From: a plasmid
Strand: one strand, 5' to 3'
Length of the DNA stretch: 12,766 nt
Assembly: GCF_056746865.1 (NCBI RefSeq)
Contig: NZ_JBWKMP010000007.1
Below the pieces are notes generated by a model, which had not been told where the DNA came from, did no database searches, and was given only the letters and a program-made list of their open reading frames with translations. Every line of letters starts with the position of its first letter. The first letter of the stretch is position 1. Positions 6,282 to 12,315 of this stretch are shown here, piece after piece. The position numbers and the translations under genes were made by a program.

Positions 6282-6346
6282 TTGACAGGGAAAATGCAGC
6301 GGCGTAATTTTAAGCTGTATATAAAACCAGTAGTTATATATACAGT
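6282..6346 (+). promoter_or_regulatory. Colicin SOS promoter: -35 TTGACA (6282-6287), -10 TAATTT (6305-6310), tandem LexA boxes beginning CTGTATATAAAACCAG (6315-6330) and extending to 6346
   Basis: gctgtatataaaaccagtagttatatatacagta matches the dual CTGT-N8-ACAG LexA operator arrangement known for colicin E1-type promoters. RBS agagga lies 7 nt before the ATG at 6393. Confidence 0.8.
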
Positions 6347-6392
6347 ATATTGCTTTTAACTATTTGTTTTTAATGTCAAAGAGGATTTTATA

Positions 6393-7456
6393 ATGGAAAC
6401 AGCTGTAGCGTACTATAAAGATGGTGTTCCTTATGATGATAAGGGGCAGGTAATCATTACTCTTTTGAATGGTAATCCAGACGGGAGTGGCTCTGGCGGC
6501 GGTGGTGGAACTGGAGGTAGCAAAAGTGAAAGTTCTGCAGCCATTCATGCCACAGCTAAATGGTCTACTGCTCAATTGAAGAAAACGCAGGCAGAACAGG
6601 CTGCCCGGGCAAAAGCTGCCGCAGAAGCACAGGCTAAAGCAAAAGCAAACCGGGATGCGCTGACTCAACATCTGAAGGATATTGTGAATGAGGCGCTTCG
6701 TCATAATTCCACTCATCCGGAGGTTATTGACCTGGCTCATGCCAATAATGCAGCGATGCAGGCAGAAGCAGAGCGGTTGCGCCTTGCAAAAGCAGAAGAA
6801 AAAGCCCGTAAAGAAGCGGAAGCTGCGGAAAAGGCTTTTCAGGAGGCAGAACAACGACGCAAAGAGATAGAGAAGGAGCAGGCTGAAACAGAACGCCAGT
6901 TGAAACTGGCTGAAGCTGAAGAGAAACGGCTGGCAGCATTGAATGAAGAGGCCCGGGCAGTGGAGGTGGCACAAAAAAATCTTGCTGCTGCACAATCTGA
7001 GCTGGCGAAAGTGGATGAAGAGATTAAGACTCTCAATACCCGTTTAAGCTCCAGTATTCATGCCCGTGATGCAGAAATGAATACGCTGTCCGGAAAACGA
7101 AATGAGCTGGCTCAGGCATCTGCTAAATATAAGGAACTTGATGAACTGGTCAAAAAATTGTCACCAAGAGCTAATGATCCGCTTCAGAGTCGTCCTTTTT
7201 TCTATGCCACCAGTCGACGGACGGGAGCCGGTAAGATTATGGAGGAAAACAAAAACAGGTAACAGCATCAGAAACGCGTATTAACCAACTTAATGCTGAG
7301 ATAAATGGAATTCAGGGGGCTATGTCTCAGGCTAATAATAATCGTAATACAGCTGTTTTACGTGTTCATGAATCTGAAGAAAATTTGAAAACAGCGCAGA
7401 CTAATCTCCTGAACTCGCAGATTAAGGATGCTGTGGATGCAACAGTTAGCTTTTAT
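6393..7456 (+). pseudogene. cea: Colicin E1-type gene, 5' part (translocation and receptor-binding domains), with a 1-nt frameshift in an A-run (7246-7249) and truncated by the IS21-family insertion at 7456/7457
   Basis: METAVAYYKDGVPYDDKGQVIITLLNGNPDGSGSGGGGG... matches colicin E1 from memory. Frame 0 stops at 7260-7262; the colicin-like reading continues in the -1 frame (VTASETRIN...DAVDATVSFY) to 7456. Confidence 0.85.
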
Positions 7457-7658
7457 TGCAAAATGGCATCTGAATCGATCGCAGTTTGGCATTCGAATCG
7501 ATCATGATTTGGCATCCATCTCCGATCACAGTTTGGCATCACAATCGATCACGATTTGGCATGCTTCCGATCATTGATTGGCATCCTGCCAGTCACTCCG
7601 GGAATTAACTCTTTTCACCACAGTCTCCATTGCCGTGTTTAAACCAGTGGAGACGTCA

Positions 7659-9224
7659 ATGTCCAGAAAGAGAAAATCCAGGAGCACTATGGAAACCTGT
7701 TTTAAGATTCTTCAGCTCAAGTTCGACAAGAAGCTGACTAACCGTTGTATCGGACTGACGTTACACATCAGCGCCTCAACCGTTTTTGAGGTTCTTGCCC
7801 GCTTCAAAGCCTCTTCTCTGTCATGGCCATTACCTGCTGATATATCCCATGACACGCTGGAGAAACTCATTTTTCCGCCCAAAGACACCTTTGCATCAGA
7901 GCTTGTAATGCCTGACATGTTGTACCTCGATACGGAAATGAGAAAACCAGGTGTGACGCGGCAACTGTTGTGGATGGAATACAAGGCACAGGCGGGTAAC
8001 AAAGCGATGGGATACTCGCACTTCTGCCGTTGCTACCGGGAGTGGAAAAAAACGCGACGTCTCTCCATGCGCCAGGAGCATCGTGCCGGCGAAAAGCTTT
8101 TTATCGACTTCTGTGGTCCTACGGTTCCTGTTATTAATCCGGACACCGGTGAGATACGCCGCGTGGCAATCTTCGTGGCCGTAATGGGGGCGTCCAACTA
8201 TACCTACGTTGAAGCGTGCGAAGGTCAGGACATGATGTCATGGTTAAATGCCCACAGCCGTTGCCTGACCTTCCTGGGCGGCGTACCGAAGCTGCTCATC
8301 CCCGATAACCTCAGAAGCGCAGTGAAAAAGGCCGATCGATATGAGCCTGTCATCAACGACAGTTATCAGGCACTGGCTGAGCACTATGGCACGGTTATCA
8401 TCCCGGCCCGACCACGCAAACCTAAAGATAAACCAAAAGCAGAAAACGGCGTCCTCATCGTCGAACGATGGCTTCTTGCCCGCATCCGTAATGAAACCTT
8501 CCACACGCTCAGGGCGCTGAATGCGCGCCTTAGGGAGTTACTGACAGACATGAATAACCGGCCAATGAAGGGGTACGGCAATCAAACCCGTGCAGAACGC
8601 TTCCGCATACTGGATGCGCCAGCACTCTCTCCGCTGCCTCTGGCACCTTATGAATACACGGAATACAAAGCTGTGAAGGTTGGCCCTGACTACCACGTTG
8701 AATATGCCCGTCACTGGTACTCCGTTCCACACGAACTGGTCGGTCAGCGTCTGTCACTGAAGGCGGGGCAGTCGGTGGTACAGCTCTGGCACAAGGGGCA
8801 GTGTGTGGCGCAACATCCGCGCAGCACACATGAATATAAACACACAACCAATCCGCTTCACATGCCAGAGCGCCACCGGCAGCACGGGACATGGACACCG
8901 GAACGCCTGATCGAGCAGGGAAAACGTACGGGCCCGTCCACAGGCCGGGTGGTTGAATCCATGCTGAAGGCAAAACCCCATCCGGAACTGGCTTATCGTG
9001 CAGTTCTGGGGCTGCTGGCACTTCAGAAAAAATACGGCCCGGAACGGCTGGAAAAGGCCTGTTACGTTGCCCTGCACTATAACGCCCCTGACAGACGCTT
9101 TATCGACAATCTGCTGCGTCACCATCGGGAGAACCTGGAGCTTCCATTATCCCGCCAGGGCGAACAACATCCGGCATATGCTTCAGAGCATGAAAACCTG
9201 CGTGGTCCGGGCTACTACCACTGA
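7659..9224 (+). CDS. istA: IS21-family transposase IstA (521 aa)
   Basis: Long ORF with a DDE-type integrase core and the IstA-typical layout; followed 16 nt later by istB. ATG at 7659 preceded by ggag. Confidence 0.85.
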   Translation: MSRKRKSRSTMETCFKILQLKFDKKLTNRCIGLTLHISASTVFEVLARFKASSLSWPLPADISHDTLEKLIFPPKDTFASELVMPDMLYLDTEMRKPGVTRQLLWMEYKAQAGNKAMGYSHFCRCYREWKKTRRLSMRQEHRAGEKLFIDFCGPTVPVINPDTGEIRRVAIFVAVMGASNYTYVEACEGQDMMSWLNAHSRCLTFLGGVPKLLIPDNLRSAVKKADRYEPVINDSYQALAEHYGTVIIPARPRKPKDKPKAENGVLIVERWLLARIRNETFHTLRALNARLRELLTDMNNRPMKGYGNQTRAERFRILDAPALSPLPLAPYEYTEYKAVKVGPDYHVEYARHWYSVPHELVGQRLSLKAGQSVVQLWHKGQCVAQHPRSTHEYKHTTNPLHMPERHRQHGTWTPERLIEQGKRTGPSTGRVVESMLKAKPHPELAYRAVLGLLALQKKYGPERLEKACYVALHYNAPDRRFIDNLLRHHRENLELPLSRQGEQHPAYASEHENLRGPGYYH

Positions 9225-10593: not shown

Positions 10594-10931
10594 TTATTCT
10601 TTATTGATATAAACAGTCCTAGCAATCCAAATGGGATTGCTAGGACCAAACAAAGTAGATTGTATAGCATAAATAGGTTTAATTTTGCCACGGGGGCATT
10701 ATTTAGATTTTTTCTTTTTCTGAAAAAATCTTTCTTTATGAACTTAAAAAATATGTGTTCAATAGCATATTTTGAATATGGGCATAGAATAGTGCTTATC
10801 ACGATTGCGTATAGCATCTTATCTGACGCTAGGAAATAATACCCTTCGTTGTTTTTTGTTATAAGGTATATATATATAAGTGTGCAATATAGGCCAAACA
10901 AAATGTTTTTTATGTAGTATCTTAAACTCAT
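10590..10931 (-). CDS. imm: Colicin E1 immunity protein (113 aa, integral membrane), intact
   Basis: [113 protein letters not shown] matches ColE1 Imm from memory. Convergent with cea. Confidence 0.9.
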
Positions 10932-10978
10932 AAATTAAACCTCGTTATATATTCTTTTCATTTTATAAGGATCGAGTT

Positions 10979-11040
10979 ATGAGGAAAAGATTTTTTGTGG
11001 GAATATTAGCTATAAACCTCCTTGTTGGATGTCAGGCTAA
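10979..11040 (+). pseudogene. kil: Colicin lysis (release) lipoprotein gene, 5' part (MRKRFFVGILAINLLVGCQA...), interrupted by IS5 after codon 20
   Basis: RBS taagga; signal peptide with lipobox LVGC as in ColE1 Kil. Reading frame enters the IS5 end at 11041. Confidence 0.8.
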
Positions 11041-12235
11041 GGAAGGTGCGAACAAGTCCCTGATATGAGATCATGTTTGTCATCTGGAGCCATGGAACAG
11101 GGTTCATCATGAGTCATCAACTTACCTTCGCCGACAGTGAATTCAGCAGTAAGCGCCGTCAGACCAGAAAAGAGATTTTCTTGTCCCGCATGGAGCAGAT
11201 TCTGCCATGGCAAAACATGGTGGAAGTCATCGAGCCGTTTTACCCCAAGGCTGGTAATGGCCGGCGACCTTATCCGCTGGAAACCATGCTACGCATTCAC
11301 TGCATGCAGCATTGGTACAACCTGAGCGATGGCGCGATGGAAGATGCTCTGTACGAAATCGCCTCCATGCGTCTGTTTGCCCGGTTATCCCTGGATAGCG
11401 CCTTGCCTGACCGCACCACCATCATGAATTTCCGCCACCTGCTGGAGCAGCATCAACTGGCCCGCCAATTGTTCAAGACCATCAATCGCTGGCTGGCCGA
11501 AGCAGGCGTCATGATGACTCAAGGCACCTTGGTCGATGCCACCATCATTGAGGCACCCAGCTCGACCAAGAACAAAGAGCAGCAACGCGATCCGGAGATG
11601 CATCAGACCAAGAAAGGCAATCAATGGCACTTTGGCATGAAGGCCCACATTGGTGTCGATGCCAAGAGTGGCCTGACCCACAGCCTAGTCACCACCGCGG
11701 CCAACGAGCATGACCTCAATCAGCTGGGTAATCTGCTGCATGGAGAGGAGCAATTTGTCTCAGCCGATGCCGGCTACCAAGGGGCGCCACAGCGCGAGGA
11801 GCTGGCCGAGGTGGATGTGGACTGGCTGATCGCCGAGCGCCCCGGCAAGGTAAGAACCTTGAAACAGCATCCACGCAAGAACAAAACGGCCATCAACATC
11901 GAATACATGAAAGCCAGCATCCGGGCCAAGGTGGAGCACCCATTTCGCATCATCAAGCGACAGTTCGGCTTCGTGAAAGCCAGATACAAGGGGTTGCTGA
12001 AAAACGATAACCAACTGGCGATGTTATTCACGCTGGCCAACCTGTTTCGGGCGGACCAAATGATACGTCAGTGGGAGAGATCTCACTAAAAACTGGGGAT
12101 AACGCCTTAAATGGCGAAGAAACGGTCTAAATAGGCTGATTCAAGGCATTTACGGGAGAAAAAATCGGCTCAAACATGAAGAAATGAAATGACTGAGTCA
12201 GCCGAGAAGAATTTCCCCGCTTATTCGCACCTTCC
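11041..12235 (+). mobile_element. IS5 (1195 bp), complete, with 4-bp target site duplication CTAA (11037-11040 and 12236-12239)
   Basis: Ends ggaaggtgcgaacaag... and ...cttattcgcaccttcc are the IS5 inverted repeats from memory. CTAA is the typical IS5 target and is duplicated on both sides. Confidence 0.95.
11109..12089 (+). CDS. insH: IS5 transposase (326 aa)
   Basis: [96 protein letters not shown]... matches the IS5 transposase from memory. Confidence 0.95.
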
Positions 12236-12315
12236 CTAACTATATACGTGATGTTCAGGGAGGGACTGTGGCTCCATCATCTTCTTCTAAACTGACGGGG
12301 ATCTCTGTTCAGTAG
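12236..12315 (+). pseudogene. kil: Colicin lysis lipoprotein gene, 3' part (...[25 protein letters not shown])
   Basis: Continues the kil frame across the CTAA duplication; stop at 12313-12315. Confidence 0.8.

Follow-up and report, generated by a model that had tools for sequence, protein, structure and literature searches.

The plasmid contig NZ_JBWKMP010000007.1 (assembly GCF_056746865.1), with its 12,766 nucleotides (nt) termed the window in the following, carries a colicin operon of E1 type with genes for the toxin (cea), the immunity protein (imm) and the lysis protein (kil). The window represents a whole circular plasmid, both of its ends being contiguous on the circular 8899-bp plasmid NZ_CP128975.1 (L002; fetched loci are numbered with the prefix L). 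Four lesions were found in cea and kil, while imm is intact. Comparison with relatives in public data indicates that this pseudo-operon very probably arose by successive mutations, which can still be reconstructed, within one lineage of ColE1-type mobilisable plasmids. By their distribution the lesions are to be regarded as consecutive steps within that lineage and not as four parallel selective hits; selection is plausible only for the first lesion in cea and for the insertion in kil.

Lesions of the cea-imm-kil operon

Lesions were called by global alignment of the window, stripped of its insertion sequences (IS), against two plasmids with an intact annotated colicin gene of 1566 nt, L001 (NZ_CP135675.1) and L003 (pSMS35_8, NC_010485.1), and also against L002. 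A first-pass annotation, made from the sequence of the window, had proposed an operon of colicin E1 type with a 1-nt deletion, a 2.6-kb IS21-family insertion and a deletion of roughly 10 nt in cea, and a complete IS5 in kil. The alignment bore out all of this, and the reading frames are not continuous. The features of the operon are as follows.

6282–6310, plus strand: putative cea promoter with -35 hexamer TTGACA (6282–6287), 17-nt spacer and -10 hexamer TAATTT (6305–6310), read from the sequence
6315–6330, plus strand: LexA box 1, CTGTATATAAAACCAG, intact, fitting the consensus CTG-N10-CAG
6330–6345, plus strand: LexA box 2, GTAGTTATATATACAG, with a derived G-to-A exchange at 6332; relatives carry GTG at the left end
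6393–7456, plus strand: 5' part of cea, codons 1–355; the N-terminal 191 amino acids match the colicin E1 T-domain chain 6wxh_D
7457–10095, plus strand: complete IS21-family element, annotated as ISSso4-family, with istA (7689–9224) and istB (9241–9996)
10103–10593, plus strand: 3' part of cea, coding for the channel domain; 10 nt are deleted between 10472 and 10473
10590–10931, minus strand: imm, 113 amino acids, intact; identical to imm of L003; Pfam PF03526 (colicin E1 immunity protein), E=5e-35
10979–11040, plus strand: 5' part of kil, 62 nt, encoding the signal peptide, the lipobox LVGC and two mature residues, and reading into IS5
11041–12235, plus strand: complete IS5, 1195 bp, with a transposase open reading frame (ORF) at 11073–12089 (NF033581, 365 bits)
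12240–12315, plus strand: 3' part of kil; joined to 10979–11040 it gives the intact 45-amino-acid kil of L001

In cea, a run of five A is shortened to four (residual run 7246–7249), and the frame stops at 7262, leaving a product of 289 amino acids. The deletion in the channel domain comprises exactly 10 nt (TTGTTTTACT) and maps to the point where the hydrophobic hairpin begins (..DAGVSYIV|VLLFSVLAG..). The third lesion is an insertion of 2639 bp, flanked by a 7-bp duplication, CTTTTAT, at 7450–7456 and 10096–10102. When the four lesions were undone in silico, a cea gene of 1566 nt was obtained, which differs from that of L001 by a single synonymous exchange at 6860 and whose product of 521 amino acids is identical to WP_000447001.

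As neither colicin E1 nor its immunity protein nor Kil has a hidden Markov model in NCBIfam, the proteins were assigned with Pfam and PDB. The restored colicin contains the Pfam domain Colicin (PF01024) at residues 343–517; its best match in PDB is the colicin E1 channel domain 2i88 (E=2e-112), and the T-domain fragment 6wxh was also matched (E=3e-98). Amino acid identities to the annotated colicin E1 counterparts were 88.9% for the restored colicin, 94.7% for the immunity protein and 93.3% for Kil. Thus, judged by its sequence, the toxin is an allele of colicin E1 type and not colicin E1 itself. In NZ_CP128975.1, PGAP marks cea as a frameshifted pseudogene; kil is intact there.

The element within cea has the attributes of the IS21 family, i.e., istA and istB, which exceed the NCBIfam cutoffs (NF033546, 286 bits, and NF038214, 258 bits, respectively), TG..CA ends (TGCAAA..ACGCA), repeats of about 23 nt at the left end with inverted copies at the right end, and a target duplication of 7 bp, within the 4–8 bp of the family. 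Full-length copies with 100% identity, annotated as ISSso4-family, are present in many Escherichia coli genomes. Transcription from the SOS promoter would run into this element.

IS5 splits kil after nt 62, in codon 21. Its length, a single intact DDE transposase, terminal inverted repeats of 16 bp with one mismatch (GGAAGGTGCGAACAAG and GGAAGGTGCGAATAAG) and a 4-bp YTAR target duplication, CTAA, at 11037–11040 and 12236–12239 identify it as complete. The truncated Kil is a product of 29 residues, the last nine of which are encoded by the IS; the rejoined gene encodes the 45-residue protein WP_001519492 with the lipobox LVGC, and the same product carries PF02402 (Lysis_col) in sibling contigs.

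Insertions into kil were also found in plasmids with intact cea and imm. CP099155.1 (L010) contains an IS903-like element at about codon 36 with a 9-bp duplication, and NZ_CP148355.1 (L011) a Tn3-family transposon at codon 23 with a 5-bp duplication. In a megablast survey of PLSDB centred on kil, 2540 ColE1-like plasmids had a conserved region downstream of the gene; disrupted and merely divergent records were inseparable in this survey. In plasmid pLAO42 (L008, NZ_OP242235.1), positions 3558–4233 hold about 670 nt of unrelated sequence at the start of kil, with a flank overlap of 16 nt, besides a Tn3-family junction in kil.

The region upstream of cea was taken as a putative promoter from its location with respect to the LexA boxes and from what is known of ColE1. 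The first-pass annotation had described the SOS promoter as intact. This held for the -35 and -10 hexamers, which are unchanged with respect to the intact relatives, and for LexA box 1, which is perfect. It did not hold for box 2, which now reads GTA-N10-CAG; the exchanged position, 6332, corresponds to the G in the left half-site CTG, which is conserved (consensus CTG-N10-CAG; PMC2994835). The A allele occurs in the window, in L002 and in the loci of later stages (see below), and was not found in the intact plasmids, in plasmids with the 10-nt deletion only, or in L016. According to PMC2994835, which cites Lu and Chak 1996, two overlapping SOS boxes on colicin operons restrain untimely, lethal expression. 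The exchange at 6332 may affect LexA binding.

Order of events

Diagnostic k-mers for each lesion and for each linked single-nucleotide polymorphism (SNP) were scored across all fetched loci. A comparison of related plasmids had been proposed with the first-pass annotation; its outcome was a nested series of the same lesions, besides the kil insertions by other elements described above. Each stage adds to the preceding one.

Stage 1, intact: L001, L003
Stage 2, 10-nt deletion only, with all ancestral SNPs: L024–L029
Stage 3, addition of the A-run deletion and 6860C: L016
Stage 4, addition of the A in box 2 and 1335T: L014, L015, L017, L019, L021
Stage 5, addition of 3518G (8899-bp type): L002, L018, L020, L022
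Stage 6, addition of 167T and kil::IS5: L023
Stage 7, addition of 1949T, a further copy of a 21-nt repeat, an additional G and cea::IS21: the window

L023, a circle of 10,098 nt (ENA ERZ28598523 scaffold_1533), has the same IS5 junctions as the window and an empty site in cea; the IS21-family insertion is therefore the last of the lesions. For the two small deletions, the order with the 10-nt deletion first is more parsimonious, without being proven.

The same 2639-bp element was found in L022 (GCA_017807335.1 contig, 11,545 nt), in reversed orientation at the window-equivalent position 2920–2927, just downstream of mbeA. Since L022 is otherwise of the 8899-bp type, the lineage was struck by this element at least twice, at different sites.

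Some details concern the concatemeric contigs of stage 4. L014, L015 and L019 were considered as plasmids without the 10-nt deletion, on account of a second ORF of 198 amino acids; all three carry the deletion. L019 contains an in-frame tandem duplication of 63 nt in the channel domain of its dead cea (21 residues repeated), and the matching second ORF suggests the same duplication in L014 and L015, which, as L019, are GCA_9744902xx concatemeric contigs. Within the concatemers of L015 and L019 the A-run varies between copies, which may reflect long-read error or heteroplasmy.

The immunity gene

Placed between the two other genes and running in the opposite direction, imm overlaps the 3' end of cea by 4 nt and is followed upstream by 109 nt of native sequence before IS5. 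It is identical to the references, in accord with the first-pass annotation, to which it looked intact, and all loci inspected for it have an intact copy. The chance that 12 mutational events would all miss imm is P=0.63; its intactness is thus uninformative with respect to selection. Within the 3' end of imm, at 10614–10648 (minus strand), a hairpin with a 15-bp stem and a T-rich tail was scored as terminator-like; convergent transcripts of cea and imm meet there.

Selection or drift

The first-pass annotation had taken several independent hits on toxin and lysis functions, with immunity and mobilisation retained, as a sign of selection for loss of colicin production. The mutations are indeed independent, and hits in kil recur in relatives; the lesions are sequential, however, and the IS21-family element entered an already dead cea. 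The 10-nt deletion had destroyed the channel domain, so that the later lesions in cea had no colicin function to remove. Being later than kil::IS5, the insertion cea::IS21 could not be selected for loss of toxin or lysis, not even through a polar effect on kil. What remains plausible is selection on at most two events, the initial lesion of cea and kil::IS5.

Purely neutral decay, in which a dispensable operon drifted and IS landed in it by chance in an IS-rich host, is rather unlikely in our view. Both IS are 100% or nearly identical to abundant copies in E. coli; IS and transposons occur also in mbeA/mbeD and in non-coding parts of siblings; and by length alone the chance of both IS falling into cea or kil is 0.036, which is not extreme. 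The decayed lineage with intact kil is, moreover, common and stable (213 contigs). The explanation is strained by kil itself, which with 138 nt makes up 1.5% of the backbone and holds only 3 of its 87 YTAR target sites, yet has received three of the eight independent mobile-element insertions seen in the plasmid family (binomial 2e-4; the sample is biased, as some loci were picked because their match to the operon was truncated). In addition, induction of Kil is known to kill the cell (PMC2994835), and drift alone should be slow to fix an insertion of 1.2 kb in a multicopy plasmid.

That each of the four lesions was independently selected for loss of colicin or lysis, with immunity and mobilisation kept by purifying selection, appears very unlikely. 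Of the 12 mutational events by which the window differs from the intact consensus, six are located in the promoter, cea or kil, which make up 20% of the backbone (binomial P=0.02); independent frameshifts of cea were found in L006 and L007, independent kil insertions in L010 and L011, and imm was intact in all loci examined for it. Such fourfold selection is, however, contradicted by the order of events, since the second small lesion and cea::IS21 struck a dead gene, and zero hits in imm are expected by chance (see above). The site of the IS21-family element in L022 looks neutral. Retention of mobilisation held for the window, where the mob genes are open, and not for its siblings: in L012 the same Tn3-family element as in L011 sits in mbeD, and in L021 an IS66-family element disrupts mbeA/mbeD. 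Finally, intact cea prevails by far in public data (52 of 56 records, and at least 1000 contigs versus 32 and 213 for the decayed types).

It is hardly conceivable that errors of sequencing or assembly account for the small deletions, or that the split frames still give a functional colicin, e.g., by frameshifting: the 1-nt lesion does lie in a homopolymer, a typical site of long-read errors, and the concatemeric L015 and L019 vary there from copy to copy, but the A4 allele and the 10-nt deletion recur in many independent assemblies, complete RefSeq plasmids included, the A4 allele travels with linked SNPs, neither the 10-nt deletion nor IS with target duplications are error types, and a split colicin would have lost the hairpin frame and have 2.6 kb of IS between its domains.

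Several observations weigh against a stepwise history with selection on two of its steps. The statistics are post hoc, and the sample for the enrichment in kil is small and partly biased; the operon is more AT-rich than the remaining plasmid and may attract insertions. Residual activity of the truncated Kil, which keeps signal peptide and lipobox, is conceivable. The haplotype of the stage with the A-run deletion rests on one concatemeric long-read assembly, L016. Three metagenome contigs, L030–L032, have the A-run deletion without the 10-nt deletion, together with ancestral SNPs, so that all four combinations of the two alleles exist, and one of them, L031 (Logan ERR4191867, 2657 nt), carries the left kil|IS5 junction of the window on a cea with the A-run deletion only, a G in box 2 and 6860T. 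These contigs could reflect a recurrent slip in the A-run (perhaps also recurrent insertion of IS5 at CTAA), recombination, or chimeric assembly. Lastly, a scan for consensus promoters upstream of 10931 revealed no promoter for imm; expression of immunity, which we consider probable, is judged solely from the 109 nt of native sequence upstream.

An order with the A-run deletion first, as L030–L032 might suggest, was considered and rejected as less parsimonious: these contigs are few, all metagenomic and with ancestral SNPs, and the type with only the 10-nt deletion is found in isolate genomes and in 32 contigs.

Distribution in public data

Intact cea is the majority form. Among 56 RefSeq records with an E1-like cea, 52 showed no net indel in the 782-nt segment tested; the intact product of 521 amino acids was found in at least 1000 contigs, the 487-residue product in 32, and the second ORF of 177 residues, which is diagnostic of both deletions, in 213. 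By look-up of exact products in a large assembly collection, the truncated product of 289 amino acids was found in 353 blocks and that of 487 amino acids, resulting from the 10-nt deletion alone, in 47 blocks, isolate genomes among them. Both small deletions occur in three 8899-bp plasmids in PLSDB, two of which belong to complete RefSeq E. coli genomes; this frameshifted lineage includes NZ_CP128975.1, NZ_CP032881.1 and AP026459.1. Parts of the 782-nt cea segment also had matches at 127 chromosomal places in complete E. coli genomes, in many cases with at least 99% identity and low coverage.

Neither IS junction of the window was present in 5426 complete E. coli genomes, no PLSDB record covered 80% of the window, and an exact look-up of the 61-residue ORF at the cea/IS21 junction in a gene-call index yielded no copy. 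The literature searched provided general background; it contained no account of this plasmid lineage or of a kil disrupted by an IS.

Comparison with known plasmids

With the cea-imm-kil operon of ColE1 the window shares gene order and orientation, the 4-nt overlap of imm and cea, and a putative SOS promoter in which two LexA boxes overlap, box 1 being perfect in the window. Homology of the restored colicin extends over the full length of the protein; it is an allelic variant, annotated as "colicin-like pore-forming protein" by PGAP and as "colicin-10" by Prokka. Unlike in ColE1, cea and kil of the window are pseudogenes and LexA box 2 is mutated.

The 8.9-kb plasmids of the pSMS35_8 type (NC_010485.1, NZ_CP135675.1) have a backbone with 98.7–99.6% identity, identical imm and kil, and a colicin identical to the restored protein; in contrast to the window they are without all four lesions and have a G in LexA box 2. 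Both small deletions, the A in box 2 and linked SNPs are common to the window, the 8899-bp lineage and L023, the latter having also the exact kil::IS5 junctions. Beyond L023, the window has cea::IS21, the expanded 21-nt repeat of mbeA/mbeD, an additional G at 3712 and a single SNP. CP099155.1 and NZ_CP148355.1 resemble the window in their interrupted kil and intact imm, whereas the elements and the codons are different and cea is intact; these plasmids would produce colicin without a release protein.

Replicon and mobilisation region

The closest relatives in PLSDB are 8.9-kb E. coli plasmids, with 98.7–99.7% identity over the non-IS part of the window, which amounts to 70%; their hosts were sampled mainly from chickens and humans. 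Two backbone features are of interest here.

12375–12477, minus strand: RNAI of a ColE1-type replicon (Rfam RF00106, 87 bits)
1143–2717, plus strand: mbeA relaxase gene, 524 amino acids, open frame (NF047848 relax_MbeA_E1, 864 bits)

The window carries the MbeA/B/C/D mobilisation set as well as exc1/exc2, and rop is annotated at the homologous position in near-identical relatives. With its RNAI/RNAII replicon with rop and the MbeA relaxase set, the plasmid is of the ColE1-like mobilisable type; function of oriT and transfer are predicted on this basis.

An additional 21-nt unit, CACTTGAGCGAGCAGACAGAA, is present in frame at 2533–2553, inside mbeA and the embedded mbeD. It encodes ..EHLSEQT.. 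in MbeD and ..ERADRTL.. in MbeA, which has 524 amino acids compared with 517 in relatives. The expansion is absent from every relative compared, including the kil::IS5 sibling L023. The IS66 insertion of L021 sits at the same repeat region.

At position 3712 of the window an extra G is present with respect to L001, L002, L003 and L023, in a stretch for which the RefSeq relative has no gene annotated. At 4449–4667 (minus strand) lies what is left of an IS3-family orfA (72-residue ORF); the annotation of NZ_CP128975.1 reads "transposase, incomplete". In the larger relatives L017 and L018, homology of the backbone ends exactly at this remnant and is followed by a full IS3-family element and cargo genes for an iron-uptake ATP-binding cassette (ABC) transporter and a major facilitator superfamily (MFS) protein.

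Proposed history and significance

The following history is proposed. A 10-nt deletion would first have removed the start of the channel-domain hairpin, giving a dead colicin of 487 amino acids; a slip from A5 to A4 would then have cut translation at 289 amino acids, followed by the G-to-A exchange in LexA box 2, by entry of IS5 into a CTAA site at codon 21 of kil, and by entry of an ISSso4-like IS21-family element into codon 355 of cea. The first cea lesion and the knock-out of kil may have been favoured because they would spare the cell the expense of making toxin and the lethality of SOS-induced Kil. The second and third lesions in cea would represent neutral decay of an already inactive gene, the lineage having been struck by mobile elements at several different sites.

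A further proposal, which must be considered unlikely, is a compensatory cascade: with cea dead, the exchange in box 2 might weaken repression by the double operator and raise the basal toxicity of Kil, which in turn would select for kil::IS5. More generally, kil might be a recurrent target of mobile elements across ColE1-like colicin plasmids, repeatedly yielding immune plasmids without lysis function.

With a stop at codon 289, an IS between the domains and loss of the hairpin, no active colicin should be formed, nor should a lysis protein be supplied by the plasmid; its host would be an immune non-producer. Immune non-producers, in which toxin and lysis are lost and immunity is kept, are an expected outcome of bacteriocin ecology. 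The type of operon and the backbone are known; new is only the end state, cea::IS21 on top of kil::IS5, together with the recovery of all intermediates from public data. The repeated hits on a gene of 138 nt such as kil deserve attention. Typing of colicins by gene presence would call the plasmid of the window, and its common 8899-bp relatives, positive for colicin E1 despite the lack of an active colicin. The intermediates present in public assemblies constitute a natural series in which the fitness consequences of losing a bacteriocin from a multicopy plasmid could be studied step by step.

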